Origin: Bacteroidota bacterium
GTDB taxonomy: Bacteria; Bacteroidota; Bacteroidia; 2-12-FULL-35-15
Reading direction: 5' to 3'
DNA length: 64,000 nucleotides
Assembly: GCA_947476185.1 (NCBI GenBank)
Contig: CANJPX010000010.1
Coordinates: 574 to 64,573 of the forward strand
This document shows, piece after piece, positions 5,518 to 62,200 of the stretch. The notes beneath the pieces were generated by a model, which saw only the letters and a program-made list of their open reading frames with translations, had not been told where the DNA came from and did no database searches. The translations under genes and the position numbers were made by a program. Position 1 is the first letter of the stretch, and every line of letters begins with the position of its first letter.

Positions 5518-5593
5518 AGTGAGTAGTTTAGTTCAAAAACAAATATATAAAAAATACCATTTTACAAAAAAAAACTTACAACCAGAAATATTC

Positions 5594-6121
5594 CTAATAA
5601 TTGACTAAACTAATAATAGTTGAGGAGTATGGTGCTAATTTTTCTCTACCTTTTAGGAAATCAAGCTCCACAACAAAAGCAAATCCGGCAACATTTCCCT
5701 GTTGCATTTGAATTAACTTAACCGCAGCTTCTGCCGTACCACCTGTAGCCAACAAGTCATCGTGAATCAAAACATTCCAGCCGGGCTGAATTTCATCGAT
5801 CTGCATTTCTACTTTTGCACTCCCATATTCCAGATCATACTCGTATGCAATTTTTTTATACGGCAGCTTTCCCGCTTTTCGCACCAGAATAAAAGGAATA
5901 TTCATTTTGTTCGCCAGTGCAAATCCAAATAAAAAGCCGCGGCTTTCAACTCCAACAATAGCATTGATATTTTTATCAGCAACCCGTTCGGCAAATTCAT
6001 TTACAATTTCGTTGCACAATTGCTGATTATGAAAAATAGGTGTTATGTCTTTAAATAATATTCCCGGTTTTGGAAAGTCTTCGACATCGCGAATGATCCC
6101 TTTTATTTTTTTTTGTAACAT
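5594..6121 (-). CDS. apt: adenine phosphoribosyltransferase
   Basis: 175 aa. ..DFPKPGILFKDITP.. and the PRPP-binding loop VELDFLKG / HDDLLATGGT. Confidence 0.85.
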   Translation of the reverse strand: MLQKKIKGIIRDVEDFPKPGILFKDITPIFHNQQLCNEIVNEFAERVADKNINAIVGVESRGFLFGFALANKMNIPFILVRKAGKLPYKKIAYEYDLEYGSAKVEMQIDEIQPGWNVLIHDDLLATGGTAEAAVKLIQMQQGNVAGFAFVVELDFLKGREKLAPYSSTIISLVNY

Positions 6122-36081: not shown

Positions 36082-37224
36082 ATGAAAAAAAATTTATTGC
36101 TTGCATTGATGCTTTTTGCAAGGCAACTATTCGCACAAACAGATAGTTTAAATTCTGACTCATTGCTGCTTCTGCAGATCCAGAACGACATGAAGGAAGC
36201 TGCTGCTCCACCAACAATTCAACAACGAATTGCGGCTTCCGCAAATCCTGATATAAGCGCAATTGGCGATTTTAGGGGATATTACAGAAGTTATGGCAAA
36301 CATAATTTTGATGCTGCACTTCACGAAACCGAATTCTCTTTTCAATCTGTGGTCGATCCATATGCCCGTGCCGATTTCTTTTATTCTGTTGCCGAAGATG
36401 AAAAAACAGGGGAATTTTCAGGTGAGATCGAAGAAGGATATTTGACAACTCTATCTCTGCCGGGGCATTTACAATTAAAAGCAGGAAGATTCAAAGAACA
36501 AATGGGGCGCATAAATCCTGTTCATGCGCATGCACTTCCATTCATTGATATGCCCGATGCGTATGTAAATTTTTTCGGAGAAGATGGATTCAAAGGAGAT
36601 GGTCTTTCCTTAAGTTGGTTATTACCGAATCATTCATTTTTCCAGGAACTAACTGTGGAAGCAACTAATGTAAGCGAGGGTCCGAGTTTTGAAAGAAGTG
36701 CCGGAAATAATTATTTATACAATGCACATCTAAAAAATTTCTGGGACCTTACGGATAATGCAACTTTGGAATTAGGCTTGTCAGGAATGACAGGAGAAAA
36801 TCTGATGAAAAAAATCACCAATATCGGAGCGATCGATCTTACCTATAAATGGAAACCTATCCGTTATAACACCTATAAATCTGTCACATTTCAGAATGAG
36901 TTGTATTATAGTCAGGCAGCACTCGACAGCTCAACAGTTAACGCAATTGGATTTTACTCTTTGCTGAATGTGCAAATTGCAAAACGAAGTTTCCTTGCAG
37001 GAAGATTTGATTATTCAAACAATCCTTACTCAGCAAAATTTGTGCAAGAGTCAGGCTCTTTAACGCTAGGATTTCTGGCAACAGAATTTCAAAAAATTGA
37101 GATAGAAGGGAAATACACAACGATGAATACGGCACTTGCAGAAAATGACAATCAGAAAAAATTTGTCTCAGCATATCTGAGATGGATCTTCGTCATTGGA
37201 TCTCATGGAGCACATACTTATTAA
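36082..37224 (+). CDS. hypothetical secreted outer-membrane (porin-like) beta-rich protein upstream of znuA
   Basis: 380 aa. Signal peptide (..LFAQ). Alternating amphipathic beta-strand pattern with aromatic girdles. No specific family recognised. Confidence 0.4.
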   Translation: MKKNLLLALMLFARQLFAQTDSLNSDSLLLLQIQNDMKEAAAPPTIQQRIAASANPDISAIGDFRGYYRSYGKHNFDAALHETEFSFQSVVDPYARADFFYSVAEDEKTGEFSGEIEEGYLTTLSLPGHLQLKAGRFKEQMGRINPVHAHALPFIDMPDAYVNFFGEDGFKGDGLSLSWLLPNHSFFQELTVEATNVSEGPSFERSAGNNYLYNAHLKNFWDLTDNATLELGLSGMTGENLMKKITNIGAIDLTYKWKPIRYNTYKSVTFQNELYYSQAALDSSTVNAIGFYSLLNVQIAKRSFLAGRFDYSNNPYSAKFVQESGSLTLGFLATEFQKIEIEGKYTTMNTALAENDNQKKFVSAYLRWIFVIGSHGAHTY

Positions 37225-39216: not shown

Positions 39217-39606
39217 TTGAAAAAGTCACTGATCTTATTTTTGACATTCATTTACCTGGTTGTAGCATCAGGCGTGGCTTTTAATTTCCATTACTGCCGA
39301 GGTAAGATCAGCAGCATCTCTCTTGCATTTGTCAGCAACCACGATAATTGTTGTGGAAAAAAGAAAATGACAAAGAAAAACTGTTGTAAAAACAAAACCT
39401 CAGTTTTAAAAATAAACGACAATCAACATTCTTCAACAAATATCAAAGCGCCTTCAACAATCATTACGGCTATTGACGCTAGTTTTACACAGATCAACTT
39501 CAGTGTTGCATCTATCATTGAAGCGAAAACCATTTCAAGAATTCACGCCCCCCCTGATATTTATCAGGATTCGATATACCTGCAATATCGCGTATTGATC
39601 ATTTAG
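39217..39606 (+). CDS. hypothetical small Cys-rich membrane-anchored/secreted protein
   Basis: 129 aa. Hydrophobic N-terminus then HYCRGK..NHDNCCGKKKMTKKNCCKNK. No family recognised. Confidence 0.35.
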   Translation: MKKSLILFLTFIYLVVASGVAFNFHYCRGKISSISLAFVSNHDNCCGKKKMTKKNCCKNKTSVLKINDNQHSSTNIKAPSTIITAIDASFTQINFSVASIIEAKTISRIHAPPDIYQDSIYLQYRVLII

Positions 39607-39763: not shown

Positions 39764-39997
39764 ATGAAAACTAAAATCATTCTATCAAGTTTCGTACTTT
39801 CAACAATAATTATTTTTTCTTGTAACGGTGAAGCAAAGAAAGATGCCACCGCAACTGAAAATGCGAGTCAGCCTGTAGCAGCTTTTGCTTATACCTGTCC
39901 GATGCATCCTGATGTAAAAAGCGATAAACCGGCACAATGCCCTGATTGTGGAATGGATCTGGAAAAAGTAGAAAAGACAGATAGTATCAGCCATTAG
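39764..39997 (+). CDS. small lipoprotein consisting of a heavy-metal-binding domain (HMBD; YxCPMHP...CPxCGMxL motif)
   Basis: 77 aa. Lipobox ..IIFSC. Motif AYTCPMHPDVKSDKPAQCPDCGMDLEKV matches the HMBD found at N-termini of CusB-like and other metal efflux proteins. Confidence 0.65.
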   Translation: MKTKIILSSFVLSTIIIFSCNGEAKKDATATENASQPVAAFAYTCPMHPDVKSDKPAQCPDCGMDLEKVEKTDSISH

Positions 39998-40149: not shown

Positions 40150-40470
40150 TTGGTTACAATTTCACCAATTGAAAAAATTAAAAAAGGAAAATTATTATTT
40201 GAACAAAACTGTTTGTTGTGTCACGGTGCTTTAGGAAAAGGAGATGGATATGCCGGCATTTATCTAAATCCAAGACCCTTTGACATCAGTTCCGAAAAGG
40301 TACAAATACAAAGTGATTCCACCCTTTTTTTTAAAATCACTCTTGGAAAAGCACCTATGCCAACTTTCAAAGCACTGCCTTTTGAATCAAGATTATATCT
40401 ATTAATGTATGTCAGAGAACTTGGGAAAAATAATAATAAACAGACCGCTAAAAATGATTCGAAGAACTAA
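40150..40470 (+). CDS. class I c-type cytochrome domain (CxxCH); apparently frameshifted from its signal peptide at the poly-C tract
   Basis: ..KLLFEQNCLLCHGALGKGDGYAGIYLNPRPFD.. heme-binding CLLCH. As it stands the ORF starts at a TTG with no export signal. The upstream frame-2 ORF (40049..) encodes MLYRLLFFLLPLGYLFSPPP. Confidence 0.6.
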   Translation: MVTISPIEKIKKGKLLFEQNCLLCHGALGKGDGYAGIYLNPRPFDISSEKVQIQSDSTLFFKITLGKAPMPTFKALPFESRLYLLMYVRELGKNNNKQTAKNDSKN

Positions 40471-41674
40471 CTACTGCATATGGATAATTATTTTTTCTTT
40501 TTTAATAGTTGAAAAAGGAGAAGCAATAAATAATGACACCATTTCAAAAAAAGAAAACTTTAAATTCTCCCGAATTGTATTTTCCGGAAACGGTTATTGT
40601 GGAGTCGATGTACATTTAAATAAGTCTCTAAAAGACAGTACGGGAATGGAATCTACATCCCTTCCAATTGGTTTGGCTCCAATCATATTATGGAAGCTCA
40701 CACCTCAGTTATTTATTGAAAGTGAATTCGATTTTATGATGGATCATGGAATGTTAAGTGGAGAAATTGGATATGCAAATTTATGCTACTCCACGAATAA
40801 ATTGGGCACGATACAAATAGGAAAATTTCTTAGTCCGTTCGGAATTTATTCAGAACGCTATCACCCATTTTGGATAAATAATGCTCCAAATACACCGTTG
40901 GGATTCGCACATGAAGGATCTTCACCTGAATCAGAGTTAGGTGTTTGTTATAAAGTAGGTTCCAAACATTTTACATATGCTATGTATGCATCTTTGAGTC
41001 CAAAAATAGATGGAGGGAGTGAAAATGTAAAAAATGCAGGTAAAATTATTTTCCACATTGATCTGAGAGAAAAGTTCAATAAAAAAATTGGTTTGGGCGC
41101 TCGAGTAGGAATTTTGCCATTTAAAAACCCTTCTATAGAACTGGGACTTTCCTATAAATGGATGCAATTGGAAGTTGGCGAACATTACGATGGAACAGCG
41201 GTCACACACACGCATCCATCTGGCGAGCAATCAAAATATTACATTGGGAATATGTATGCTGTTGATCTTACGATTGAAAAAATCCTTGCCCGATTGAAAG
41301 GTAAGATTGATATAAAAGCACAAGTAAATTACACAGATGTTGGAACTAATAATTTTATAAAAACTAGTCCAAGTGGAATTACTGAAATTGATTATTCTTA
41401 TTCAAATAAGAGTGAAATTGGATTTGCAATGCTATCCTTTAAACCAATATTAGTTGACAATTACATCCTAAAAAGATCAGGAATATTTGTACGTGGAGGG
41501 ACCTTACAATTGCCTATTGGTTCTTTATGGTACGAGACAACCTATGAAATCACAGCTGGATTAAATTATTCATTTAATTGGCAAAATATCCTGAAAATAG
41601 GATACCAGCAGATTTCAACTGCAAAAAAAGGTTATACAAATAATATATTGTTACAATGGGCTGTAGGTTTTTAA
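40454..41674 (+). CDS. hypothetical outer-membrane beta-barrel protein
   Basis: About 406 aa from MIRRTNYCIWIIIFSFLIV. Amphipathic beta-strand pattern. C-terminal ..LLQWAVGF ends in Phe (OM barrel signature). Confidence 0.45.
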   Translation: MIRRTNYCIWIIIFSFLIVEKGEAINNDTISKKENFKFSRIVFSGNGYCGVDVHLNKSLKDSTGMESTSLPIGLAPIILWKLTPQLFIESEFDFMMDHGMLSGEIGYANLCYSTNKLGTIQIGKFLSPFGIYSERYHPFWINNAPNTPLGFAHEGSSPESELGVCYKVGSKHFTYAMYASLSPKIDGGSENVKNAGKIIFHIDLREKFNKKIGLGARVGILPFKNPSIELGLSYKWMQLEVGEHYDGTAVTHTHPSGEQSKYYIGNMYAVDLTIEKILARLKGKIDIKAQVNYTDVGTNNFIKTSPSGITEIDYSYSNKSEIGFAMLSFKPILVDNYILKRSGIFVRGGTLQLPIGSLWYETTYEITAGLNYSFNWQNILKIGYQQISTAKKGYTNNILLQWAVGF

Positions 41675-44220: not shown

Positions 44221-44580
44221 ATGAAAAGAAAACTATTTACGGGAATCATAGCCGTGCTTTTGCTATTTTCTTCAAACGTAAAAGCACAAGATTTAAAAAG
44301 TGCGGAAATAAAAATTAAGACTTCTGCAACTTGCGACATGTGCAAAAAAACAATAGAAAGTGCTCTCGCATTCGAAAAAGGCGTAAAAAAATCAACGTTG
44401 GATGTACCTACAAAAATAGTTACAGTTGTATACAACCCAAAGAAAACAACGCCAGAAAAAATTCGACTGGCAATTTCCAATGCAGGATATGAAGCTGACA
44501 GCTTAAAAGCTAATCCTAAAGCATGGAGCAACTTAGAGGATTGTTGCAAAAAAGGCACCACTTGTGAAGAAAAAAAATAA
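44221..44580 (+). CDS. periplasmic heavy-metal-associated (HMA) domain protein (copper-chaperone-like)
   Basis: 119 aa. Signal peptide. HMA fold with metal-binding ..TSATCDMCKKTIESAL.. (CxxC). C-terminal ..EDCCKKGTTCEEKK Cys cluster. Confidence 0.75.
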   Translation: MKRKLFTGIIAVLLLFSSNVKAQDLKSAEIKIKTSATCDMCKKTIESALAFEKGVKKSTLDVPTKIVTVVYNPKKTTPEKIRLAISNAGYEADSLKANPKAWSNLEDCCKKGTTCEEKK

Positions 44581-44785: not shown

Positions 44786-45559
44786 ATGAAAAAAATAATA
44801 CTAATCACTCTTGCCGGCATTATCTCTAGTTTTGGCTTTGCACAAACGACAGCAACAGACTTCACAGTAAATGATTGTTCCGGAACTTCACATCATCTTT
44901 TCGCTGAATTGGATGCAGGTAAAGTTATTGTAATTGCTTTTGTAATGCCATGCACTTCTTGTATCGCACCATCTGTTTCTGCTTATTCGGAAGTACAAAA
45001 CTATGCAAGCACTTATCCTGGACGTGTTTTATTTTATTTATCCGATGACCTGGGAACTGCTACCTGTTCATCAATAACAAACTGGGGAACAACAAATGGA
45101 ATAACCGGAGTTCCAGTGTTTTGCAATACCGCTGTCAAACAAGCAGATTATGGTGCAGCAGCAATGCCTAAAATTGTAGTTTTAGGTGGTCCTACTCATA
45201 CTGTTCTTTTTTCGCAAGACAATGGATTGAATGTAACAAATTTCAATGCTGCTATTAATTTAGGATTAGTTGCAGGCATCTTTGAAAATTCAAAATCCGA
45301 CTTCGAATTGTCAGTTTTCCCTAATCCTTCAAAGACAGATAAAACCACTATAAACTACACTCTGAAAGAAGGTTCTGATGTCACCGTTGACATTTATAAT
45401 ACAATTGGTGAAAAAGTTAAGACCATCGCGCTTGAAAAGCAAGCTGCAGGAAAACACGAATCAATATTAGATTTTGAATCATTGACCAATGGAATTTATT
45501 TCATAAAGTTGAATGCGGGAGAATCATCTCAAGTACTCAAATTCAGTGTTTCACATTAA
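44786..45559 (+). CDS. thioredoxin-fold (TlpA/redoxin-like, CxxC) protein with T9SS type A C-terminal sorting domain
   Basis: 257 aa. Signal peptide. ..GKVIVIAFVMPCTSCIAPS.. redoxin-type active site. C-terminal ..LSVFPNPSKTDKTTINYTL..GIYFIKLNAG.. T9SS C-terminal domain. Confidence 0.65.
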   Translation: MKKIILITLAGIISSFGFAQTTATDFTVNDCSGTSHHLFAELDAGKVIVIAFVMPCTSCIAPSVSAYSEVQNYASTYPGRVLFYLSDDLGTATCSSITNWGTTNGITGVPVFCNTAVKQADYGAAAMPKIVVLGGPTHTVLFSQDNGLNVTNFNAAINLGLVAGIFENSKSDFELSVFPNPSKTDKTTINYTLKEGSDVTVDIYNTIGEKVKTIALEKQAAGKHESILDFESLTNGIYFIKLNAGESSQVLKFSVSH

Positions 45560-45584
45560 GATTTTATTTTGATTGTTATTTTAC

Positions 45585-45626
45585 AACCTGATATTATCTT
45601 TTAATAATATCAGGTTGTTTTTTTTA
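45585..45626 (+). terminator. rho-independent terminator after the first thioredoxin-T9SS gene
   Basis: Perfect hairpin AACCTGATATTAT-CTTTTA-ATAATATCAGGTT followed by GTTTTTTTTAATT. Confidence 0.7.
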
Positions 45627-45646: not shown

Positions 45647-46756
45647 ATGCGTTCTCTTATTTTTATTGCAACGACAATTCTATTCGCAAATAATATTTAT
45701 TCGCAAGGATGTTGTTCAGGTGGCAGTGGCAGTCCAATTGCAGGAGGAGCTTCACAGGGAGTCCTTCAAGACAGACAGGTTGAAGTTGCAGCAAATTATC
45801 AATACATCAACACGAATAAATTTAAATCCGGTGACAAAGATACGGCAGCTTTATTCGATGGATTCACAAGTAACTACATGTATCTTCGATTAGCATATGG
45901 CCTGACAAAAAACCTGACCATGTCTGTTGAATCAGGATATTATTTAAATAAAACACAAATCGGATTAAACAGAGTCGATACATTTAGTTCAGCCGGAATT
46001 GGCGACCTGATTTTATTTCCAAGATATGATGTATTAAACAGAACATCAGAAAAAAAACGCACAGAAATCACCTTGGGTATCGGACTAAAAATTCCATTAG
46101 GCATGTATGACGACTCAACTCTTTTTTACACAAACCCATATACAAGAAAACAGCTTTTCAGACCGTCACCTCCTTCAGTACAACCCTCTACAGGAGCGAA
46201 TGATTTTATTTTTTACGGCTTCTTTTACAGAGGTTATCCTGAAAAAAAATTCAGAGTATTCATGAATACATTATACGTTCGCAAAGGCTGGAGTCCAATT
46301 GGAGCGAAATTCGGGGATTACGCAAGTGTCGGTTTATTTGCCGGTCAAACCTTCTTTAAAAAATTAGGAGTTACCATACAGGTAAAAGGAGAATGGATCG
46401 GAAAAATGAAAGCCAGCCAAAATGCAGATGATATGATGAATATGTATAATGTGGATATCGTTTCAACAGGCAGCCGAAAAATATTATTTGTGCCTCAGCT
46501 TAGTTATAGCTATAACAGCTTCTCTATTTATGCCTTGACAGAAATTCCGCTTTACCAATATGTCAACAAAGTACAAGTAGCATCGCAAGTTCAGGCAACT
46601 GTGGGGATTTCATATCGATTTAATGCGTATAAAAAAATAGCCGTTAAAAGTGATTCGCAAAGTCTTTATGTTTGTCCGATGGGCTGTGTTGGAAGCGAAA
46701 GCAATGAACCTGGAAAATGCAAAGAATGCGGAATGGAATTAATAAAAAGAAAATAA
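45647..46756 (+). CDS. outer-membrane beta-barrel protein with N-terminal Cys-rich stretch and C-terminal heavy-metal-binding domain (HMBD) extension
   Basis: 369 aa. Signal peptide then QGCCSGGSGSP. Barrel body ending ..VGISYRF. C-terminal tail ..YVCPMGCVGSESNEPGKCKECGMELIKRK is the same YxCPM...CxxCGMxL motif as the 39764 lipoprotein. Confidence 0.55.
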   Translation: MRSLIFIATTILFANNIYSQGCCSGGSGSPIAGGASQGVLQDRQVEVAANYQYINTNKFKSGDKDTAALFDGFTSNYMYLRLAYGLTKNLTMSVESGYYLNKTQIGLNRVDTFSSAGIGDLILFPRYDVLNRTSEKKRTEITLGIGLKIPLGMYDDSTLFYTNPYTRKQLFRPSPPSVQPSTGANDFIFYGFFYRGYPEKKFRVFMNTLYVRKGWSPIGAKFGDYASVGLFAGQTFFKKLGVTIQVKGEWIGKMKASQNADDMMNMYNVDIVSTGSRKILFVPQLSYSYNSFSIYALTEIPLYQYVNKVQVASQVQATVGISYRFNAYKKIAVKSDSQSLYVCPMGCVGSESNEPGKCKECGMELIKRK

Positions 46757-46767
46757 AAAATAATCGA

Positions 46768-47544
46768 ATGAAAAAATTATTGACACTTATTTCTGTATTC
46801 TTATTTGTTTCAGTGTCTTTATACGGGCAAACAGCAATTGACTGGACCAAACTAGATTGTTCAGGAATCAGCCATAATCTTTATACGTATTTAAATAATG
46901 AGGATGTTGTAATTATGGAATTTGCTATGGGTTGTAGCAGTTGTACCAATGCCGGAGCACGACTACTTAGTATAAAAGACAAATATGCAATTTCTAATCC
47001 TGGGAAAGTAAACGTATTCTATATGGATTACTGGCCTGGAAATACCTGTGCAACTGTTGTTTTACCTACAACTACGCCTTATGCCTTTGATGCTGTATTT
47101 GATCATTCACTTGCAGAAAAAGATAATTATTTTGCTAGCTCCTCTCCAATGCCCGGTATTGCAATTGCTGCGGGAAGTTCACATCAGATAATTTATCAGG
47201 TAAATAGTTTTGTTGATGCTGATACTACATTAATTGAACAAGCAATCACTGCATTTTTCGCAACAGCAAACATTAAAGAAAACCTTTTCGAAAATACAAT
47301 AACACTTTCTCCAAATCCCTCCACTGGAGATGTAATAATTAATTTTACAAATACAGAAACAGAAAACATTAATATTTCACTTTTTAATTTAAATGGTCAA
47401 TTGATTAAAGGACTCTTTAATGAGAAAGTATCAGTTGGAGATTTCAAAAAAATAATTGATATCCGATCCTATCCTAAAGGCTTATATTACATTAACATTT
47501 CCAATTCAAAATACTCAATTAACAAAAAGATAGTTGTAAATTAA
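46768..47544 (+). CDS. thioredoxin-fold (CxxC) protein with T9SS type A C-terminal sorting domain, paralogue of 44786..45559
   Basis: Signal peptide MKKLLTLISVFLFVSVSLYGQ. ..DVVIMEFAMGCSSCTNAG.. C-terminal ..TLSPNPSTGDVIINF..GLYYINIS.. T9SS C-terminal domain. Collinear similarity with the 44786 protein (..DCSG.SH.L...L.....V.I..F.M.C.SC..). Confidence 0.65.
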   Translation: MKKLLTLISVFLFVSVSLYGQTAIDWTKLDCSGISHNLYTYLNNEDVVIMEFAMGCSSCTNAGARLLSIKDKYAISNPGKVNVFYMDYWPGNTCATVVLPTTTPYAFDAVFDHSLAEKDNYFASSSPMPGIAIAAGSSHQIIYQVNSFVDADTTLIEQAITAFFATANIKENLFENTITLSPNPSTGDVIINFTNTETENINISLFNLNGQLIKGLFNEKVSVGDFKKIIDIRSYPKGLYYINISNSKYSINKKIVVN

Positions 47545-47970: not shown

Positions 47971-48165
47971 TTAACGATAAAATTTAATTTTCCGTGTTGC
48001 CTTTTTGCAGATGGCATAAACTATTAACATTTCTGTTGATGGATGTTTTTTTACATGCAATTATTTGGTTACGGGAAAAAGTTCACATTTTTAGAACTAC
48101 TTTTTAGAAAAACAAATCAATTATCGATTTGTTATATTTTTATTTATCTAATAATTATAAATATT

Positions 48166-48954
48166 ATGAAACCACATAAAATATTTTTCGCATTTTTTTT
48201 ATCAGTTACACTTCTTGCTTCATCTTGTAAAAAAGACAAAGATGAAGAAACGCCAACACCTTCAGTTCCCGCTGCCACATCTGGAAGCCTGGCACTTCAT
48301 TTTGAAAATATGGTGGGAGATAGTGCCTTGGTAATGAATACCGAATCATATGTAACTGCAAACAATGATACAATTACTGTTTCTGCATTTAAATATTATA
48401 TCAGCAACATTGTATTAACTAAAAGCGGTGGAGGAACATATGTTGAAAATGAGAGTTACCATTTAATTGATGCTTCTGACTTATTAACCGGTGAATTTAC
48501 TCTTCCAAATGTTCCTTTCGGGGATTACACAGGAATTACATTTATGATCGGTGTTGACAGTACACGGAATGTTTCAGGTGCACAAACCGGAGCATTAGAT
48601 CCTGTAAATGGAATGTACATGGGAATGGGTGCAGGTTATATCCAAGCAACCTTGGAAGGATTATCTCCACAGTCAACATCTGGAGGGCACATGTTCATGT
48701 ACCAAGTTGCTGGATTCCAAGGAATATACAACCCTCTTAAAACTATTTCTCCAACTTTTTCAGGTGGTATCGCCACTGTCACATCAAGTGTTATTCCAGA
48801 AATTCACTTCAAAACGAATTTATTAGAATGGTTCACAACGCCTAACAACATTAGCATTTCCGCTGTGAGTATGGTAATGTCTGTTAACTCAACAAGTCTA
48901 AATTTCGCTGACAACTATGCAGACATGATAAGCGTTGAACACATACACAATTAA
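48166..48954 (+). CDS. lipoprotein, possibly MbnP-like (copper-associated periplasmic protein family)
   Basis: From MKPHKIFFAFFLSVTLLASSC (lipobox). ..FKYYISNIVLTKSGGGTYVENESYHLIDAS.. and C-terminal ..NFADNYADMISVEHIHN resemble what I recall of Bacteroidota MbnP-family proteins. Tentative. Confidence 0.4.
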   Translation: MKPHKIFFAFFLSVTLLASSCKKDKDEETPTPSVPAATSGSLALHFENMVGDSALVMNTESYVTANNDTITVSAFKYYISNIVLTKSGGGTYVENESYHLIDASDLLTGEFTLPNVPFGDYTGITFMIGVDSTRNVSGAQTGALDPVNGMYMGMGAGYIQATLEGLSPQSTSGGHMFMYQVAGFQGIYNPLKTISPTFSGGIATVTSSVIPEIHFKTNLLEWFTTPNNISISAVSMVMSVNSTSLNFADNYADMISVEHIHN

Positions 48955-49645: not shown

Positions 49646-51106
49646 ATGAAGCGTAAACAAAAAATACTATTTTTTATTCCATTAACAATTTTTATTGTTT
49701 GCTTCTTAACGACATGCACCAACGATAAAGGAATACCTGATTACAATCAATTTCCTGATGATGTCGGAAAAATAATTTTCACTAAATGTGCTACGCCCGG
49801 CTGTCACACAGATATAAGCAAAGGTGCAACAGGAGGTCTTTCACTGGAAAGTTGGGATAAAATGTTTGATGGAGGGAAAACCAGTGCCTGTGTTATCCCC
49901 TACAGAAATGACTACAGCACATTTTTTTCCTATATAAATACATATTCAGATCTAGGTGTAACACTTTTACCGGTTATGCCATACAATAAAAATCCTTTAA
50001 CGCGTGAGGAAGTTATACTATTAGGAAACTGGATCAATGCAGGGGCGCCCAGCAGAGATGGCACTATAAAATTTGCAGACGATCCTAATCGTAAAAAGTT
50101 TTATGTCACAAACCAAGGTTGTGATGTTGTAACTGTGTTTGATCAAAAAACACAATTACCAATGCGTTACATCAATGTAGGAAACTCCGCAGCTACGGAA
50201 TCTCCGCATGACATAAAAGTTTCACCTGATGGACAATATTGGTATGTTGTATTTTTACAAGGAAATTCAATCCAAAAATATAAAACGAGTGATGACACTT
50301 TTGTGGGTGAAGCTTTTTTAGGTGTAAAGAGTTGGAATTCTTTTACGATGACAAGTGATGGTTCTAAGGCCTATGTGGTTGACTGGAGCAGCAGTGGCGA
50401 TGTTGCAGTGGTAGACCTTAACACATTTGCTGTAACACATAATATTGGTTTTAATTATCCACATGGTTCTTGTCTTAATCCAACAGAAGATACTTTATAT
50501 GTAACGGAACAAAACAATAGCAGCAAAATGTATAAAGTTCCCGTAAATGATTTTTCTGCATTCTCAGAAATAAATTTATTTACAACACCGCCTCCCTCTT
50601 TTCTGAATTCACATCTTGTAGACTTTTCCCCTGATGGAACAGAATATTTTGTGACTTGTCAAGGAACATCAGAAGTCAGAGTTTTTCAACAAGGAACAGA
50701 TCAATTATTAGCGACAATACCGGTTGGAGGACTTCCTTCTGAAATGGCAATTTCAGATCTTCACAATTATTTATTTGTTACCTGTGAAGAGGATACACTT
50801 TCCTTTCCAGGCAAAAGAGGAAGCATCGCTGTAATCGACATTGCAAGTAATTCATTAATAAAAACAATTTATTCGGGCCATCAACCGCATGGAATTGATG
50901 TTGACGATGAAAAAAATCTGGTTTATATCGCCAACAGAAATAAAACGAATGATGGCCCGGCACCTCATCACACAAGCGTTTGCGGCGGCAGGAATGGGTA
51001 TGTTACTTTTATTGATATGAATAGTTTAGAATTGATTCAAGCGGGTGCCGGCGCAAAAAAAACCGAGGTTTCCGTGGATCCATATGAAGTAGCTGTCCGT
51101 CACTGA
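49646..51106 (+). CDS. lipoprotein with N-terminal mono-heme cytochrome c domain fused to a YVTN-type beta-propeller (cd1-like architecture)
   Basis: 486 aa. Lipobox ..FLTTC. ..IIFTKCATPGCHTD.. (CxxCH) and ..LTREEVILLGNWINAGAP cytochrome c C-terminal helix. Repeated propeller blades (FYVTNQG, AYVVDWSS, LYVTEQNN, YFVTCQG, LFVTCEED, VYIANRN). Confidence 0.7.
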   Translation: MKRKQKILFFIPLTIFIVCFLTTCTNDKGIPDYNQFPDDVGKIIFTKCATPGCHTDISKGATGGLSLESWDKMFDGGKTSACVIPYRNDYSTFFSYINTYSDLGVTLLPVMPYNKNPLTREEVILLGNWINAGAPSRDGTIKFADDPNRKKFYVTNQGCDVVTVFDQKTQLPMRYINVGNSAATESPHDIKVSPDGQYWYVVFLQGNSIQKYKTSDDTFVGEAFLGVKSWNSFTMTSDGSKAYVVDWSSSGDVAVVDLNTFAVTHNIGFNYPHGSCLNPTEDTLYVTEQNNSSKMYKVPVNDFSAFSEINLFTTPPPSFLNSHLVDFSPDGTEYFVTCQGTSEVRVFQQGTDQLLATIPVGGLPSEMAISDLHNYLFVTCEEDTLSFPGKRGSIAVIDIASNSLIKTIYSGHQPHGIDVDDEKNLVYIANRNKTNDGPAPHHTSVCGGRNGYVTFIDMNSLELIQAGAGAKKTEVSVDPYEVAVRH

Positions 51107-51519
51107 TGTCTCCATTACCCGAAAATAGCAACATTATACTTTTTGATGGCATCTGTAATCTCTGCAATTCATATGTCAATAAAACTATCAAGCTCGACAA
51201 AAAAAATAAATTTAAATTTGCTACACTTCAATCAGAAGTTGGAAAAAAAATATTACGTGAATGCTTGATTGACCCTTCAGTAACTGACAGCATTATTTTA
51301 TTTGAAAACAAAACTGCCTATTCAAAATCAACGGCCGTACTTAAGATTGCAAAACTCATTGGCGGACTTTATTCATTAGCCTTCGCTTTTATTATTATCC
51401 CACCATTCATTCGAAATGCTGTTTACGATTTCATTGCAAAAAACAGGTATAAATGGTTTGGAAAAAAGGAAACATGTATGGTTCCTACAGAAGAAATAAA
51501 GTCAAAATTTATTTCTTAA
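51106..51519 (+). CDS. thiol-disulfide oxidoreductase, DCC family (DUF393)
   Basis: 137 aa. ..IILFDGICNLCNSYVN.. is the DCC-family DGxCxLC signature. Its ATG overlaps the upstream TGA (TGATG), suggesting translational coupling. Confidence 0.75.
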   Translation: MSPLPENSNIILFDGICNLCNSYVNKTIKLDKKNKFKFATLQSEVGKKILRECLIDPSVTDSIILFENKTAYSKSTAVLKIAKLIGGLYSLAFAFIIIPPFIRNAVYDFIAKNRYKWFGKKETCMVPTEEIKSKFIS

Positions 51520-52944: not shown

Positions 52945-53155
52945 ATTTTTTTTGATTTTTAGGTTATCGAAATTTTCGAGGGCTAATTTAGAAAAGAAAA
53001 ACATATTCAACTATGTTTTTTTGAACAGTTTTAGCAATTTAATAGCATTTTTAAAAAAATCACTTTTTTGATGCAACTTAAATTTAACTTTTTGCATCTG
53101 CCTGAAAGGCAGATTATAATATTTGCATTATATTAGTAGCGATAAAACTTTCTTT

Positions 53156-55789
53156 ATGAAAAAGACGACACTTCTTCTTCTCGTTTTTGCAATTGTATTT
53201 TTTATACCAAATTTGGTAATAGCACAAGGTGGTGATTGCACAACAGCCGATCCATTTTGTACAGGTGTAAGCTATACTTTCCCTGCTTCTACAACAACTG
53301 CTGCGGCGACAGGCCCGGATTATGGTTGCTTGCTTTCGCAACCAAATCCGGCATTTTATTATGTGCAGATTGCTACTCCGGGAACGCTGATCATCGATAT
53401 TTCTCAACAAACTGCTGCCGGCTTAGGTACCGATGTAGACTTTATTTGTTGGGGACCTTTTACTTCTCCTTCAGCCGGATGTGCTTCCGGATTAATAGGC
53501 TCAGCAGTTGATTGCAGTTTTTCAACTGCAGCAAATGAAACATGTACTATCCCATCTGCCTTAACAGGGCAATTCTATATTTTGCTTTTAACAAATTTTG
53601 AAGGCGTTGCTGCAGACATAACTTTTGCCTCCAACGGTTCCAGTACTGCAACGACCAATTGTGCTATCCTATGTAACATGACAGGATTAACAGCAGTTCC
53701 CGGACCTTGTAATCCTGCCACAAATACGTATACATTGAGTGGCGTCATAACCTATGCCGACCCGCCTACCACCGGCACGTTAACCGTCACGAACAGTTGT
53801 AGTGGGGTCACGCAAGTCTTTAATCCACCATTTCCAGCTACATCGGTCAGTTACTCACTGGCCGGAATGCCTGCCACAGGAGCGGGCTGTACAGTAACGG
53901 CCGTGTTTTCTGGCGACCCATTGTGTACATTAACAACTCCTTTCACAGCTACGGCCCCTTGTACAGTTTCCTGTTTGATTTCTGCAGTTACAGCAACGCC
54001 GACAGCTTGTAATGCTGTAACTCAACAATATGATGTGAGCGGGAACGTTACTTTTGTGAATGCTCCTGCTTCAGGGACATTAACAATTACGAATTCTTGC
54101 GGAGGAACACCGGTAGTTTTCAACGCACCATTTACAAGTCCTGCTGCCTATAGCTTCCCGGGATTAATTTCAAACGGCGCATCCTGTAATGTAACTGCTG
54201 TTTTTTCTGCAGATCCTGCTTGTACTTTCACGCAAGCGTATATTGCTCCAGCACCTTGTCCGGTTTCATGTTCGATAACGGCATTAACTGCAACACCATC
54301 GGCATGTGATCCTGTAACAAACAATTATTCAGTTACAGGAAGTATCTCCTTTGTAAATCCGCCAGCAACAGGAACCTTAACGGTTTCAAGTTCTTGCGGA
54401 GGTACGGTGCAAATTTTGAGTCCACCATTTGTGAGTCCGCTCGCATACGCCTTAAACGGACTAACGTCTAACGGTTCTGCCTGTGTTGTTACAGCCGTAT
54501 TTTCTGCAGATCCTTTGTGTATCTTAACTCAAAACTATACAGCCCCAGCCTCTTGTACGTTATGCCCTGTAACTGCAGCTAACAATGGTCCATTATGTGC
54601 CGGACAAACATTAAACCTCACAGCAACAACTGTTGCAGGCGCAACCTATAGCTGGACAGGTCCCGGTGGATTTGTTTCAACACTGCAAAACCCTACAATT
54701 CCTGCAACTACCGCGGCAATGTCAGGAGTTTACACTGTTACAATTAATATAGTAACACCAGCCTGCAGCGGAGCTTCCAGCACCACAGTTACAATAAATG
54801 CCCTTCCTGTTGTTATAGTGAATTCTCCGACAACATGTACAGGCATTTCGACAACACTTACAGCAAGCGGAGCTACAACTTATTCCTGGTCTTCCGGTGA
54901 AATAACCAATCCAATAACAGTTCCAGGAACATCCACAAGCTATACCGTAACAGGAACGACAGCAGGTTGCACAGGAACTGCGGTAGCAGTTGTAACAAGC
55001 TCCCCTCCACCTATCGTTAGTTTTGCTGGAGTAAATTTAAGCGGTTGCAATCCTGTTTCGGCAAGTTTCACTGCTGACCAAACAGGGAATCCGGGAGCAA
55101 CATATACTTGGAATTTTGGTGATGGGACAACAGGAACAGGTCCTACTACTTCACATGTCTATTTGACCAATGGATGCCACACTGTAACATTAACAGTAAG
55201 TTTCGGAGCGGGATGTTCAACCACAGATTCCATACCTTGTATGGTAAATGTTTTTGCTCAACCGACTGCAAATTTCACATTTGCTCCTACTACTATTGAT
55301 ATCTTAAATCCAACAGCATTCTTTACAAACGCTTCTGCTAATTCTACTATTTGGGCCTGGGATTTTGGAGACAACACTTCCTCGACAACAGAAAACCCTA
55401 TTCATACCTGGGGAGAAATGGGGGCCTATCCTGTAACCTTATACGCTTCAACAGCAAATGGCTGTATCGACTCAATTACCTATATTATCTACATTGAAGA
55501 TATTGTTACCGCTTATATTCCAAATACATTTTCTCCGAATGCTGATGGAGTGAATGATATTTTTAATATTTATTCCCACGGTATTTCTCCAGACAATTTT
55601 GAAATGTTGATCTTCGACAGATGGGGAAATAAAATATATACTTCACGAAATATTAATGAAGGATGGAATGGCGCGGTAAATAATCGTGGAGAAGTTGTTG
55701 AAATTGATGTTTATGTATACCATTTTAATTACAGAGATTTCAAAGGCGGAAAACACAAAGCCATTGGACATGTAACAATTATAAAATAA
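53156..55789 (+). CDS. large cell-surface adhesin-like protein with gliding-motility-associated (T9SS type B) C-terminal domain
   Basis: About 877 aa from MKKTTLLLLVFAIVFFIPNLVIAQ. Cys-rich N-terminal domain shared with the next gene, three about 95-aa repeats (..TAVPGPCNPATNTYTLSG..), Ig-like and PKD (..YTWNFGDGTTGTGPTTSHVY..) domains. C-terminal ..YIPNTFSPNADGVNDIFNIY..LIFDRWGNKIY..GWNG.. CHU_C-type domain. Confidence 0.8.
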   Translation: MKKTTLLLLVFAIVFFIPNLVIAQGGDCTTADPFCTGVSYTFPASTTTAAATGPDYGCLLSQPNPAFYYVQIATPGTLIIDISQQTAAGLGTDVDFICWGPFTSPSAGCASGLIGSAVDCSFSTAANETCTIPSALTGQFYILLLTNFEGVAADITFASNGSSTATTNCAILCNMTGLTAVPGPCNPATNTYTLSGVITYADPPTTGTLTVTNSCSGVTQVFNPPFPATSVSYSLAGMPATGAGCTVTAVFSGDPLCTLTTPFTATAPCTVSCLISAVTATPTACNAVTQQYDVSGNVTFVNAPASGTLTITNSCGGTPVVFNAPFTSPAAYSFPGLISNGASCNVTAVFSADPACTFTQAYIAPAPCPVSCSITALTATPSACDPVTNNYSVTGSISFVNPPATGTLTVSSSCGGTVQILSPPFVSPLAYALNGLTSNGSACVVTAVFSADPLCILTQNYTAPASCTLCPVTAANNGPLCAGQTLNLTATTVAGATYSWTGPGGFVSTLQNPTIPATTAAMSGVYTVTINIVTPACSGASSTTVTINALPVVIVNSPTTCTGISTTLTASGATTYSWSSGEITNPITVPGTSTSYTVTGTTAGCTGTAVAVVTSSPPPIVSFAGVNLSGCNPVSASFTADQTGNPGATYTWNFGDGTTGTGPTTSHVYLTNGCHTVTLTVSFGAGCSTTDSIPCMVNVFAQPTANFTFAPTTIDILNPTAFFTNASANSTIWAWDFGDNTSSTTENPIHTWGEMGAYPVTLYASTANGCIDSITYIIYIEDIVTAYIPNTFSPNADGVNDIFNIYSHGISPDNFEMLIFDRWGNKIYTSRNINEGWNGAVNNRGEVVEIDVYVYHFNYRDFKGGKHKAIGHVTIIK

Positions 55790-56234: not shown

Positions 56235-56279
56235 TATTTAATGATACTCAAACTGAAACGAATAAAAACGCTCCCTTGC

Positions 56280-59200
56280 ATGAAAAAAAAATTACATAAA
56301 ACAAGTTTTCGAAAAATTCTACAAATTTCAATTTCAAAAAAACTAATTGAAATTTTTTTAGGATTATTTCTGCTTGTATCAGGTCAAATATTCGGGCAAG
56401 GAAATAACCCATGTGCTGCAACCCCTTTGGCAACAAATGCAACTTGTATTGTTACAAATGGCACTACCGTGGGTGCAACTTATGCTAGCAATGCTGCAAA
56501 TGGAGGAAGCCCAACATGTGCCTCACCGGGAGCGCCAGATGTATGGTATAGTATTGTCGCTCCAGCTAGTGGAAGTATAACACTTACTATGTCAGGTGGA
56601 GGTATTACAGATGGAGGAATGGCATTATATAACGGCCCTTGTGGCGGCCCAACACAAATTGCCTGCAGTGATGACGCAATTGGTTTAATGCCTCAAATCG
56701 TTCAATCAGGTTTAACACCAGGTGCAACATACTATGTAAGGGTGTGGTCTTATTTTAGCGGCACAGGAACTTTTGGTATTTGTGATGTTGCAAATCCGGC
56801 CCCGCCTCCTCCTCCCGCAAATGACAATCCATGTGCAGCAACAGTTTTAACTCCAGGGGTGGCTTGTACATATACTGCAGGAACTACTTCAGGTGCAACA
56901 CAAACCTTAGCTGGTTGTGTTGGTACTGCCAATGATGATGTTTGGTATTCCTTCGTAGCGGCAGGAACTTCTCAAGTAATAACGGTAGCAGCATCGGCAG
57001 GTTTTGATCCTGTTGTTGAGGTATTCTCTGGAACGTGTGGCGGACTAACAGCTATGAGTTGTAATGACTTTGCATATTTGAGTGGATCTACTGGTGGCAG
57101 CACAATAGCGGGTCTAACAATAGGACAAACCTATTGGGTAAGAATTTATGATTACTTTTCAGGTGTTCCTGCAACTAGTACTTTTAATATTTGTATTACA
57201 ACTCCTCCTCCTCCTCCTCCTCCAGGACCGGGAGATGATTGTTCTCAGGCTATACCATTTTGTACAGGAACAACTTATACCTTCCCAAATAATACAGGGA
57301 TTGCATCTTTAGGAAGCGGTGGAACTTATGGTTGTTTATTATCCACTCCTAATCCCGTTTGGTATTTTATGCAAGCAGCTACTGCTGGAAATCTTAGTAT
57401 AGGGATCAACCAAGGTACAACTGCTGGTGCTGGAAATTTAGATCTTGACTATTGCTTATGGGGTCCATTTTCAAGTCAGGCAGCGGGTTGTGCAGGAATT
57501 TCAGCAGCAAATATTTTAAGTTGTAGTTATTCTATTGCTGCAACAGAAACAGCAAATATTCCAAACGCAATAGTAGGTCAATTTTATCTTTTATTACTAA
57601 CAAATTTCTCTAACTCTGCCGGGGTTATTCAATTCAGTCAGACACTAGGGCCGGGAAGTACAAACTGTGCAGTACTTTGCGGGATGTCAGCTTTAACAGC
57701 AGTTCCCGGAGCATGTGTCCCTGCTACTAACACATATTCCGTTACAGGATCTGTAACATTCGTTTACCCTCCTGCCACCGGAAATCTAGTGATCTCTAGC
57801 AGTTGTGGAGGAAGTGTTACTGTGCCAAGTGCTGGTCTGGCAAGTCCTTATAACTATACAATTTCTGGTATTACACCTACCGGTGGCCCCTGCACAATTA
57901 CTGCAGCCTTTACTGCTGATGCAACGTGCGCACTGAATCAAACATACACTGCACCTGCCCCCTGTACCTCATGTGTTGCAACGGCCACTAATACTGGGCC
58001 CTATTGCGCCGGAGCAACTATTCAACTGAATGCCACAGGTGGCGGAACATACAGTTGGAGCGGCCCTGGAGCTTTTACTTCAACCTTACAAAACCCTACC
58101 CGGCCAGCTTCTACAGTAGCCATGAGTGGCACCTATACAGTTACTGTTACAAATGGAGCTTCCACTTGTACAGCAATAACTGCTGTTACAGTAAACCCTA
58201 TACCAGTAATTACAGCACCGGCCAATATAGCTGTTTGTGCTGGCACAGCGATTGCCGCAACAAATTTTGTAAGTATACCAGCCGGGGCAACATATACCTG
58301 GTCTAATTCAAATGTGGCAATTGGCTTAACAGCTTCAGGTATAGGAAATGTCCCGGGATTCACGGGAACAAATGCTACTACGGCCGCAATTACAGGTACA
58401 ATTACGGTAACACCTACTTTGTCAGGTTGTGTTGGTTTACCAATTATCTATACAATCACCATAAATCCACAACCTACATCAGCCTTCACTCAAACAGCGA
58501 ATACTTGTTTGACTGGAAATTCGTTTACTTTTACAAGTGCCCCAGTTATACCTTTAGGTTATACACAATCATGGACTTTTGGTGGTGGTGGTGCCAGTCC
58601 GGCAACTTCAATAACTAGTCCTGTTACTGTTACTTATACCACTCCAGGCACATATACAATTACACATATTGTAACAGGACCGGGTGCTTGTACATCAACC
58701 ACAACATCAACGGTTACCATTTATCCAATGCCAATAGTAACGGTCAATTCAGTTACTATTTGTGCAGGACAAACTACTGTGTTAACGGCGGGCGGTGCAT
58801 CAACATATACCTGGAGCGCTGGAGCAACATCAGGAGGCGGAGCAACTGCAACAGCCTCTCCATTAACAACGACGACTTATACCGTAACTGGAACAAGCAC
58901 TGACGGGTGTACAGCAACAGCAATAGCAACAGTTACAGTTACTCCTCTTCCAATAGTAACTGTCAATTCTCCTACCATTTGTTTTGGAGCTACAGCTACA
59001 CTTAATGCTGCCGGCGGGACTACTTACCTTTGGTCAACTGGTGCAATAATAAACCCAATCACTGTTACCCCTGCAGGAACAACAACTTATACTGTAACAG
59101 GAACAACAGCAGCTTGCACGAACTCGGCAGTTTCAACTGTAACCGTTACGCCATTAACGACAGTTACGGCAGTGGCTAACCTCACATTTTGTCCTGGTGC

Positions 59201-62200
59201 AGCTGTACCTCTAAACACATTTACCAGTGCGCCTGCCGGAGCAACATTTACATGGACGAACTCTAATATTAATATAGGATTGGTTGCAAGTGGAGCTACA
59301 AGTGTTCCTGCATTTACAGCAACCAATGCTACTGCTGCCGCAATTACCGGCACAATTACCATTACACCAACATTATTAGGTTGTGTAGGAACTCCAAGTA
59401 CTTATTCAATTACCGTTAATCCTTCACCAATAACAACAGTCACATCTGCAACTATTTGTCCGGGTGGAACCGCAACATTAACTGCCGGAGGGGCCTCCAC
59501 TTATTCTTGGAGTGCCGGTGTAACAGTAACAGGAATAACTACTGCAACAGCAACACCTGCTTCAACAACTTCATACACAGTAACAGGAACTTCGGCTGCA
59601 GGTTGTACGAGCACAGCTGTGGCAACAGTTACTGTTTCTCCGGTATTAGTTATAACGGTTAACTCTCCGACAATTTGTGCGGGAGTAGCGACAACATTAA
59701 CTGCCGGTGGCGGAACAACCTATACTTGGAGTGCAGGCGCTACATCTACCGGAGCAAATACAGCAACCGCTTCACCTGTGACCACAACATCCTATACCGT
59801 AACAGGAACAACAGCAGGCTGTACAAATACTGCTGTTTCGATAATTACAGTAAATCCTTTACCAACAGTTACCGCTGAAGCGAACGAGGTAGTTTGTGCC
59901 GGGGCTTCCTTGCCTGCAAACACATTCGCCAGCACACCTGCCGGGGCAACATTTGCCTGGACAAATTCTGATCCCTCAATTGGATTAGCTGCTAATGGTA
60001 CAGTTAGCACTCCTGTTTTCATAGCGGTAAATGCTACTGCTAGTCCTATTGTTTCAACTGTTACGATCACTCCTACTTTAGCTGGATGTATTGGTACGCC
60101 AATAACATATACGATTACTGTTAATCCATTACCTATTGTTACAGTAAACTCTCCAACTATTTGTCCTGGAGGAACGGCATCACTTTCAGCTAGTGGAGCC
60201 ACATCCTACACTTGGACTGCTGGGGTAATTGTTACAGGTGTAAATACTGCAACATCAACACCAGCAACAACAGCCTCTTATACAGTTACAGGAACATCAG
60301 CTGCAGGCTGTACAAGCACTGCAGTTGCGACAGTTACTGTTGCTTCAACATTAACGGTAACAGTAAATTCTCCAACAATTTGTAACGGACAAGTTGCAAC
60401 ATTGACCGGAGCGGGTGCTGCAACCTATACCTGGAGTGCCGGAGCTTCAACAACCGGAGTTAATACGGCATCTGCTTCACCTTCAACAACTACATCTTAT
60501 ACTGTGACGGGAACATCTGCAGGTTGCAGTAATACTGCTGTTGCAACTGTTACTGTCAACCCATTACCAACAGTTACTGTTACATCACCTACTATCTGTG
60601 CAGGATCGACTGCTACATTAACCGGTGGTGGAGCTACTTCCTATTCATGGAGTGCAGGAGCAACATCTTCAGGTGTTAATACAGCTACAGCCTCTCCTAT
60701 TACCACTACATCTTATACCGTTACAGGAACAACTGCAGGTTGTACCAATACGGCTGTTAGTTTAGTTACCGTTAATCCGATACCTGTAGTTGCTGTTAAC
60801 TCGCCCACTATTTGTTCGGGAGCAACTGCTGCACTAACTGCTACCGGAGCTACAACCTATACTTGGAGTGCCGGTGCCGTTTCTTCCGGAGTTAATACGG
60901 CAAACGCTACTCCTGCTTCAACGACTTCCTACACAGTCACGGGAACACTTGCTGGTTGTACAGCAACTGCTATATCTACTGTAACCGTAACTCCTTTACC
61001 TGTCGTTTCAGTTAATTCACCTACTATTTGTAATGGACAAACAGCTGCCTTAACTGCTGCCGGAGCTGCCACCTATACGTGGAGCGGTGGAGCTTCCTCA
61101 ACCGGAGTAAACACAGCTACTGCGACTCCTGCGGTTACCACGACTTATACTGTTACAGGGACCACTTCCGGTTGTACCGGAACAGCAATATCTACGGTTA
61201 CCGTTAATCCTTTACCGATTGTTACTGTTAACTCTCCGACTATTTGTGCAGGAGCTACTGCCTCATTGACTGCTGGAGGAGCAGCAACTTATGTTTGGAG
61301 TGCAGGCGCAACAGCAACAGGAGTAAATACTGCAACAGCAACACCGGCAGGAACTACTTCATACACAGTTACAGGAACAACTGCAGGCTGCACAGGTTCT
61401 GCCGTTTCAACAGTTACTGTAAATCCTTTACCTGTTTTAACTGTTAACTCTCCAACGGTCTGTCCTGGACAAACCGCAACTTTAACTGCAAGTGGTGCTG
61501 CTACTTACACATGGAGTGCTGGTGCAACATCAACTGGAGTAAATACAGCAAGTGCTACACCGGCAGGAACAACTACCTATACTGTTACAGGTACTTCTTT
61601 GGGTTGTACCGGAACAGCTGTTGCAACAGTTACTATTGGAGGATCAATCACTGTAACCGTGAACTCTCCTACAATTTGTCCGGGTGGGACTGCTGCCTTA
61701 ATTGCTACCGGTGGTGCAACATATGTGTGGAGTGCTGGTGCCGTGCCATCAGGTGTTAGCACAGCTAATGCTAGTCCTGGTGTAACAACATCCTATACTG
61801 TCACGGGGACATCCGGTGGATGTACAGGATCAGCAGTAGCTACAGTTATTGTTGAAGTTCCTGTTGCTGTTACAGTAAATTCACCTACCATTTGTAACGG
61901 TCAAGTCGCGACATTAACTGCTTCTGGAGCAACTACTTATTCATGGACAGCCGGGGCTTCTTCTACCGGTATAAATACTGCTTCGGCATCGCCTTCAGCA
62001 ACCACATCTTATACTGTTACAGGTACTACAGCAGGTTGTACAGGAACTGCAGTCGCCTCAGTCACAGTAAATGCTATTCCAACTGTTACTGTCACTTCAC
62101 CTACTATTTGTGCTGGATCAACAGCAACATTAACAGGTGGAGGTGCTACAACTTATTCTTGGAGCGCAGGTGCTACCTCCTCCGGAGTAAATACAGCAAC

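Follow-up and report, generated by a model that had tools for sequence, protein, structure and literature searches.

Little is understood about the passage of copper across the outer membrane. For Bacteroidota, a dominant group in many freshwater, soil and gut communities, next to nothing is known about it. The system described here was found in a 64,000-nucleotide stretch (contig CANJPX010000010.1) of a Bacteroidota bacterium, the whole of which is called the window. It centers on an open reading frame (ORF) for an outer-membrane beta-barrel with a Cys-Cys pair behind the signal peptide and a C-terminal heavy-metal-binding domain (HMBD), termed QCC barrel. Together with the upstream gene for a thioredoxin-like protein exported by a type IX secretion system (T9SS) it forms a two-gene module. 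The COG4313-like fold, the HMBD and the principle of attaching a metal-binding region to an outer-membrane copper barrel, as in PcoB, are already known. New are the invariant N-terminus, predicted to be pGlu-(Gly)-Cys-Cys, the interchangeable HMBD and HMA tails, and an obligate surface partner, either a T9SS-exported thioredoxin or another Cys-pair protein. No family model or paper describing such a system was found in Pfam, NCBIfam or the searchable literature. For the HMBD profile PF19335 the literature holds only an unrelated plant paper using the accession loosely, and no work linking T9SS, thioredoxin and copper in this sense was found.

The channels of the COG4313/PF13557 group (Pput2725, PDB 4RL8; SphA; TcpY) share the 12-stranded barrel at about 10 % identity. 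However, they possess neither the Cys-Cys N-terminus nor a metal-binding tail nor an exported Cys-pair partner, and they are tied to hydrophobic substrates instead of metals. The appendage of PcoB/CopB is N-terminal, disordered and rich in His and Met, whereas the QCC barrel has a folded C-terminal Cys/Met HMBD and an N-terminal Cys-Cys; PcoB is also unrelated in sequence and has no T9SS partner. The genes of SprF/PorP barrels adjoin the gene of a T9SS-secreted protein, as here. In contrast to these, QCC barrels do not match a T9SS model, the partner carries a type-A instead of a type-B sorting tail, and many distant partners are lipoproteins. Neither PcoB nor PorP/SprF nor PorV/PorQ gave an NCBIfam or Pfam match for the window barrel.

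Two systems of the inner membrane resemble the module in the use of cysteines. In the Mer system (MerP to MerT/MerF) a periplasmic HMA-type carrier is combined with a membrane protein bearing vicinal cysteines, as is the case here, and the Cys pair of MerT/MerF is essential for the passage of thiophilic metals. The C-terminus of MerA is a flexible CC tail which delivers metal, and the HMA proteins found here likewise end in CC; both Mer examples set a precedent for vicinal Cys pairs as metal hand-off stations. However, the Mer transporters are alpha-helical inner-membrane proteins for Hg(II), whereas the QCC barrel is an outer-membrane beta-barrel. In the relays from DsbD/ScsB to CcmG/ResA/TlpA/ScsC, a ResA/TlpA-fold CxxC protein works with a membrane protein whose Cys pair is essential, and both kinds of protein are present here. 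Through the Scs system such thioredoxins are connected with copper tolerance, ScsC being a Cu(I)-binding protein. These relays cross the inner membrane via helical proteins, whereas here a T9SS-exported thioredoxin meets an outer-membrane beta-barrel.

The module in the window consists of the following parts, all on the plus strand:

44786–45559, plus: obligate partner, a T9SS-exported ResA/TlpA-like thioredoxin-fold protein with type-A sorting tail (fold and profiles)
45647–46756, plus: QCC barrel with C-terminal HMBD, whole ORF, 369 amino acids (aa) (ORF, Pfam, homologs, AlphaFold2 model)
45647–45703, plus: signal peptide, aa 1–19 (sequence)
45704–45775, plus: invariant N-terminal segment QGCCSGGSGSPIAGGASQGVLQDR, aa 20–43, with vicinal Cys22 and Cys23, proposed as lumen-inserted relay or plug (alignment)
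45776–46624, plus: 12-stranded beta-barrel, aa 44–326, COG4313/FapF-like fold (AlphaFold2 model)
46625–46666, plus: linker, aa 327–340, of low confidence (predicted local distance difference test, pLDDT, below 50 for aa 329–337)
46667–46747, plus: HMBD, aa 341–367, C343-P-M345-G-C347 ... C358-K-E-C361-G-M363 (PF19335, alignment to 8OVL)

The signal peptide is directly followed by QGCCSGGSGSP (aa 20–30), and the barrel-like body ends with ..VGISYRF (aa 319–325) inside the last predicted strand (E316–326), both as read in a first-pass annotation of the ORF. The extension beyond this strand (..LYVCPMGCVGSESNEPGKCKECGMELIKRK), given there as about 40 residues, comprises 43 aa. The six cysteines of the mature protein are confined to its termini (C22 and C23; C343, C347, C358 and C361). 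The 12-stranded region contains neither Cys nor His, and the entire mature protein lacks histidine. Outside the HMBD tail the ORF has no Pfam or NCBIfam match.

A database search yielded 1,358 relatives, all unnamed or "hypothetical" and all from Bacteroidota metagenome-assembled genomes, which fall into two length classes of about 367 aa with HMBD and about 330–340 aa without it. The clade of the window barrel comprises 190 GTDB species. When the barrel alone was used for an exhaustive profile search, 672 cluster representatives were obtained (superfamily clusters at 50 % identity, about 670), 301 of them at E ≤ 1e-10. The fusion of barrel and HMBD, first regarded as an unusual architecture, thus turns up repeatedly within a family of over 1,300 proteins. 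A chance origin of tail and N-terminal motif is excluded, with the tail in 72 of the 120 best homologs and the motif in 31 of 31.

The most conserved part of the protein is its N-terminus (mean conservation 0.95 compared to 0.77 for the barrel). The block QGCCSGGSGSPIAGG.SQGVL is invariant in the alignment of both length forms (31/31 homologs). Within the strands, residues in the polar, lumen-facing register are better conserved than the apolar ones (0.86 vs 0.72, p 2e-6). Among the superfamily representatives of full length (89), Q(x)CC immediately follows the signal peptide in 69; nearly all others have QC.C or QC, and a Cys at mature position 2 occurs in essentially all of them. Judged by this conservation, the glycine-rich Q(G)CC segment, rather than the HMBD tail, is the real hallmark of the family. 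The first-pass annotation had seen the motif correctly and had treated it as a side feature, a standing that does not hold for a hallmark of the superfamily.

A lipoprotein reading of the N-terminal Cys was considered and rejected. Although the S-Q-G-C of the window barrel alone is ambiguous for a lipobox, the superfamily mostly has ..[AS]-Q-C-C. Since Gln is at −1 of the Cys-Cys in most relatives, there is no lipobox, and the arrangement fits signal peptidase I. According to the Q-rule of Bacteroidetes this enzyme cleaves before Gln and leaves an N-terminal pyroglutamate (PMC5837995). Cleavage before Q20 would therefore produce a mature pGlu-Gly-Cys-Cys N-terminus.

The barrel was modelled with AlphaFold2 on an alignment of 31 homologs (pLDDT 69, predicted template-modelling score 0.68). 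The model contains 12 transmembrane strands between aa 44 and 326, as expected from the earlier assignment to the outer-membrane beta-barrels, and a low-confidence linker (aa 329–337) followed by a small separate beta module (aa 340–368). The tail thus lies outside the barrel, and with 12 strands the C-terminal HMBD is placed on the periplasmic side, where it had been proposed to lie. The top structural match is a COG4313 channel, and after COG4313 and FapF the next fold relatives are autotransporter barrels. In autotransporter barrels an N-terminal segment threads the lumen to the surface. In the COG4313 structure the N-terminal segment is inserted into the barrel lumen (PMC4493636), and by analogy the 24-residue N-terminal segment of the QCC barrel would sit in the lumen or thread it. 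The invariance of this segment and the better conserved lumen-facing register speak indirectly for such a placement.

From the fold alone the protein could be a usual channel of the COG4313 type that takes small hydrophobic or amphipathic molecules, as proposed for SphA and TcpY, with the Cys-Cys as a structural vicinal disulfide and an incidental HMBD. Besides the top structural match, weak similarity of some relatives to PF13557 points in this direction (15–23 bits; only P0194, with 23.3 bits, is above the cut-off of 22). However, the window barrel has no PF13557 match at E ≤ 1, and no catabolic genes are among the recurrent neighbours of the module. As such a channel would also leave the HMBD and HMA fusions, the Cys-pair partners and the metal-gene context unexplained, this explanation is very improbable.

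That the tail is a HMBD, as first proposed, was borne out by profile search. PF19335 matches it with 30.0 bits in the whole protein (E 5e-7) and with 35.1 bits when the tail is taken alone (E 1.3e-8), at a gathering cut-off of 23.6. It aligns to the N-terminal metal-binding core of Legionella CopA (LpCopA, PDB 8OVL, E 0.012), for which nuclear magnetic resonance identified M44, C59 and M61 as Ag(I)/Cu(I) ligands (PMC11970713). Their equivalents in the tail are M345, C361 and M363, and the whole C-x-M ... C-x-x-C-x-M pattern (LpCopA C42/M44/C56/C59/M61) is present as C343, M345, C358, C361 and M363. The tail thus shares the profile match and the M/C/M ligands for Cu(I)/Ag(I), predicted here, with HMBD systems such as LpCopA and the HMBD-CusB fusions. 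Unlike the usual HMBD, that of this clade has Gly in place of the His after CPM, followed by an extra Cys (CPMGC; Gly346 at the position of LpCopA His45, and Cys347). A further difference is its position, since in related loci a HMBD heads periplasmic CusB-like adaptors and here it forms the C-terminus of an outer-membrane barrel.

Within the family the tail is variable. It is found on about 25 % of the barrels (85 genomic or species-level loci) in two flavours, the canonical CPMH and the Cys variant CPM.C of the window barrel, and at least 15 changes of tail state fall on a neighbour-joining tree with 140 members. In other clades a C-terminal HMA domain ending in ..CC.Y takes the place of the HMBD (Pfam-confirmed in P0125, P0143 and P0147), which is seen again on the very distant barrels of loci L147, L152 and L167. 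This fused HMA extension resembles a free-standing HMA protein of the window (44221–44580). Being optional, gained or lost at least 15 times and exchanged for HMA, the tail is an accessory, and pore selectivity does not rest on it. The HMBD is genuine, and the central role which the first-pass annotation gave it in the architecture was not upheld. Two unrelated metal-binding folds were nevertheless repeatedly recruited to the periplasmic end of the barrel, which is the strongest evidence for a metal-related function.

The second component of the module is the protein encoded directly upstream. An approximately 257-aa protein with type-A T9SS tail precedes the barrel on the same strand in about 78 of 85 loci, with gaps of −46 to 182 nucleotides (nt), and this pairing is independent of the tail of the barrel. 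In the window the partner possesses a CxxC (C56/C59), M127-P128, H138 and the additional cysteines C31 and C94. A structure predicted from homologs confirms the thioredoxin fold, in which helix 1 begins with the CxxC and a cis-Pro loop is present. The sorting tail is recognized by PF18962 (49.4 bits, cut-off 27) and TIGR04183 (43.4 bits, cut-off 23), and the sorting domain structurally matches those of mirolase and NucA. Because of this obligate thioredoxin-fold partner, a multi-protein cysteine relay or complex is likely instead of the self-contained metal-selective pore suggested in the first-pass annotation. A second copy of the partner follows the barrel, and a hairpin separates the two genes of the module:

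45583–45618, plus: hairpin with a 15-bp stem and T-run, terminator- or attenuator-like (sequence scan)
46768–47544, plus: second, divergent paralog of the partner, 12 nt past the barrel stop (M18 of the listed ORF is the probable start)

The paralog keeps all invariant partner residues and has a Por_Secre_tail match (E 1.3e-13); the same order of partner, barrel and paralog occurs in locus L001. The hairpin, a perfect stem with a T7 run behind it, is the only one of its kind in the window and lies in the 87-nt gap between partner and barrel. As a partial terminator or attenuator it could set the stoichiometry of partner and barrel. A sigma-70 promoter scan did not exceed the shuffled expectation and is unsuited to Bacteroidota. 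P0148 had been considered as a partner-barrel fusion; this one-frame call joins a sorting tail to a retained barrel signal peptide and is probably a read-through or stop-codon error, not a real fusion.

In distant relatives (80 metagenomic loci) the gene directly 5′ of the barrel again encodes an exported protein, and a Cys pair is present in every class. Most of these partners (38/59) are small Ig/PKD-like lipoproteins ending in ..CC.G.N.I.C.. (variants C.SC and CHA..C). About 10 belong to the same T9SS thioredoxin family as that of the window, and LCF.GC.GD marks about 7 further T9SS proteins; among the rest are proteins with TC.SC and a T9SS protein of RCC1 repeats with NCCSG. T9SS-tailed HMA proteins are encoded just 5′ of the module (at about 3800–4560) in L132, L153, L168 and L169, and L001 contains a multicopper oxidase with a T9SS sorting tail (3879–5609). 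It appears that Bacteroidota export copper-handling proteins to the cell surface via T9SS.

The diversity of the partners raises the question whether the barrel is a cargo-specific anchor or docking barrel which holds or assembles the upstream exported protein, possibly via disulfides of the Cys-Cys. It would resemble the SprF/PorP barrels with their adjoining T9SS cargo genes. In this case a regulatory role as copper sensor, outside any transport path, would fall to the HMBD tail, as in LpCopA, whose HMBD senses rather than delivers (PMC11970713). Such a role would suit the position of the barrel gene directly 3′ of genes for exported proteins of unlike folds (thioredoxin, Ig/PKD-like lipoprotein, FN3-like, RCC1), the 4-bp overlap often seen between both genes, and the autotransporter barrels among the nearest fold relatives, with their N-terminal segment passing through the lumen to the surface. 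However, the barrel shows no sequence relation to PorP/SprF, PorV or the T9SS component models (zero matches in NCBIfam), and type-A sorting tails normally take the general T9SS attachment route. An anchor would also leave unexplained why two metal folds were repeatedly recruited to the periplasmic end and why the genes are found in copper islands, and it is distinctly unlikely.

For the close relatives, the genes within 10 kb of 74–80 non-redundant loci were counted. Recurrent neighbours are CusB-like adaptors, often headed by a HMBD (21–22 loci), HMA-CC proteins (20–22), TolC-like factors (17), CusA (14–17), TonB-dependent receptors (15), AraC regulators with HMA-like N-terminus (11–15), multicopper oxidases (10–14) and HMBD lipoproteins (10–14). 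In L003 and L004 the partner-barrel pair stands at the end of a same-strand array of Cus and multicopper oxidase genes. In the window one strand carries genes for ZnuA/ABC-3, a HMBD lipoprotein, c-type cytochromes, a TonB-dependent receptor, a HMA protein and the module, followed by MbnP (E 1.6e-46), a cytochrome/beta-propeller protein and a DCC1-like thiol oxidoreductase. Two of these products are candidate periplasmic metal carriers:

39764–39997, plus: stand-alone HMBD lipoprotein, candidate periplasmic metal carrier (PF19335, 50.1 bits)
44221–44580, plus: signal-peptide HMA (CopZ/MerP-like) protein with vicinal-CC end, candidate periplasmic metal donor or acceptor (PF00403, E 1.4e-12; NCBIfam CopZ/MerP)

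The lipoprotein carries the same motif as the barrel tail, as had been claimed (E 2.5e-13 for its PF19335 match). The HMA gene lies two genes 5′ of the barrel and its product ends in ..EDCCKKG. All signal-peptide HMA proteins of the 20–22 loci end in a Cys pair (..CC.YE or ..CCKKG), as the HMA domains fused to barrels do, and this C-terminal CC lies outside the classical HMA domain. The fusions and the gene context together support a link of the barrel to metal handling.

Vicinal CC and MerP-like HMA matches also brought up a mercury system, which was dropped since no mer genes (merA, merT) are among the recurrent neighbours of the close loci; Hg(II) may be a substrate of the module.

On these grounds the chances are about even (probability roughly 0.5) that the two-gene module serves to carry a soft metal across the outer membrane by thiolate hand-off, Cu(I)/Ag(I) being the most likely cargo. 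The analysis observed fold and architecture, sequence conservation, domain fusions and gene linkage; we infer the N-terminus in the lumen, metal binding at any of the sites, and the order and direction of the hand-off. The periplasmic HMBD (M345/C361/M363), or free HMA and HMBD carriers where the tail is missing, would exchange metal with Cys22-Cys23 in the lumen. On their glycine-rich arm these cysteines would in turn exchange it with a CxxC/Met/His site of the thioredoxin-like protein at the surface. The linkage to Cus, multicopper oxidase and AraC-HMA genes favours export and detoxification of periplasmic Cu(I), which would run downhill if Cu(I) became oxidised extracellularly. Equally well, the TonB receptor and MbnP in the window would suit acquisition. 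PcoB, for which the direction of transport is disputed, illustrates how difficult direction is to infer.

Several points speak against such a metal path. Proteins of the ResA/TlpA type are classically known for redox catalysis, not for carrying metals, and a passive barrel alone cannot set the direction of a flux. Cus and multicopper oxidase genes were not seen within 10 kb in about 70 % of the loci, and in the distant clades only 2 of 40 loci have Cus genes. Any metal-binding tail is absent in about 75 % of family members. The N-terminal segment (aa 15–43) was modelled with low confidence (pLDDT 44–56), so that its placement is not fixed, and the grounds for metal binding or transport by the module are indirect. 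Vicinal CC is moreover reported to prefer Hg(II) over other metals (PMC5500634), and the metal may thus not be copper.

The redox character of the partner family leads to the idea of a thiol-redox relay, in which the mobile Cys-Cys N-terminus carries reducing equivalents to keep the surface thioredoxin reduced. It would be an outer-membrane counterpart of DsbD/ScsB feeding CcmG/ScsC and serve the repair of copper-oxidised surface proteins or Cu(II) reduction, with the HMBD and HMA tails as periplasmic Cys-pair entry points or copper sensors. However, both tail domains, repeatedly recruited, are known only as metal-binding domains, and no periplasmic reductase consistently linked to the module is among its recurrent neighbours. 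Among the distant partners, many are no oxidoreductases but small Ig-like proteins, and electron transfer by a peptide arm through an outer-membrane barrel has no precedent. A redox relay of this kind is rather unlikely. Somewhat short of even odds, and accordingly tentative, is a description in which the QCC barrels form a new class of outer-membrane device, a flexible pGlu-capped Cys-Cys arm within a 12-stranded barrel passing Cu(I)/Ag(I) or reducing equivalents between periplasmic HMBD or HMA domains and a surface Cys-pair protein (T9SS or lipoprotein).

If true, these proposals would describe the first cysteine relay across a bacterial outer membrane, a counterpart of MerT or DsbD there, and a cysteine-based route whose chemistry is unlike that of the known His/Met/carboxylate pores. 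T9SS would be tied to metal or redox homeostasis via a dedicated surface thioredoxin, and T9SS-exported thioredoxins would have a supply line. The hypothesis is directly testable because the invariant Cys-Cys, the tail and the CxxC of the partner are clear mutational targets.

Some further genes of the window deserve mention. The MbnP-family copper-binding protein (48043–48954) has no adjacent MbnH. It is followed by the CxxCH cytochrome/beta-propeller protein (NHL/lactonase-like, 49646–51106) and the DCC1-like thiol-disulfide oxidoreductase (51106–51519), and in L001 and L002 synteny with the module extends to all three genes. A 129-aa membrane or secreted protein (39217–39606) without Pfam match has the motif HYCRGK and the vicinal-Cys motifs NCCGKKKM and NCCKN. 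Its family accompanies the module at about 16 of 80 loci, frequently close to HMA genes, and may correspond to the DUF8199 proteins of L001 and L003. Two signal-peptide, barrel-looking proteins of no Pfam or NCBIfam family (36082–37224, 380 aa; 40409–41674, 421 aa) are encoded in the same metal-related same-strand array, and the family of the latter is found in 5–6 related loci. At the end of the window, 53123–55789 and 56241–64000 encode very large Cys-rich repeat surface proteins (PKD/CHU_C type), homologs of which are also located 3′ of the module in L001 and L004.
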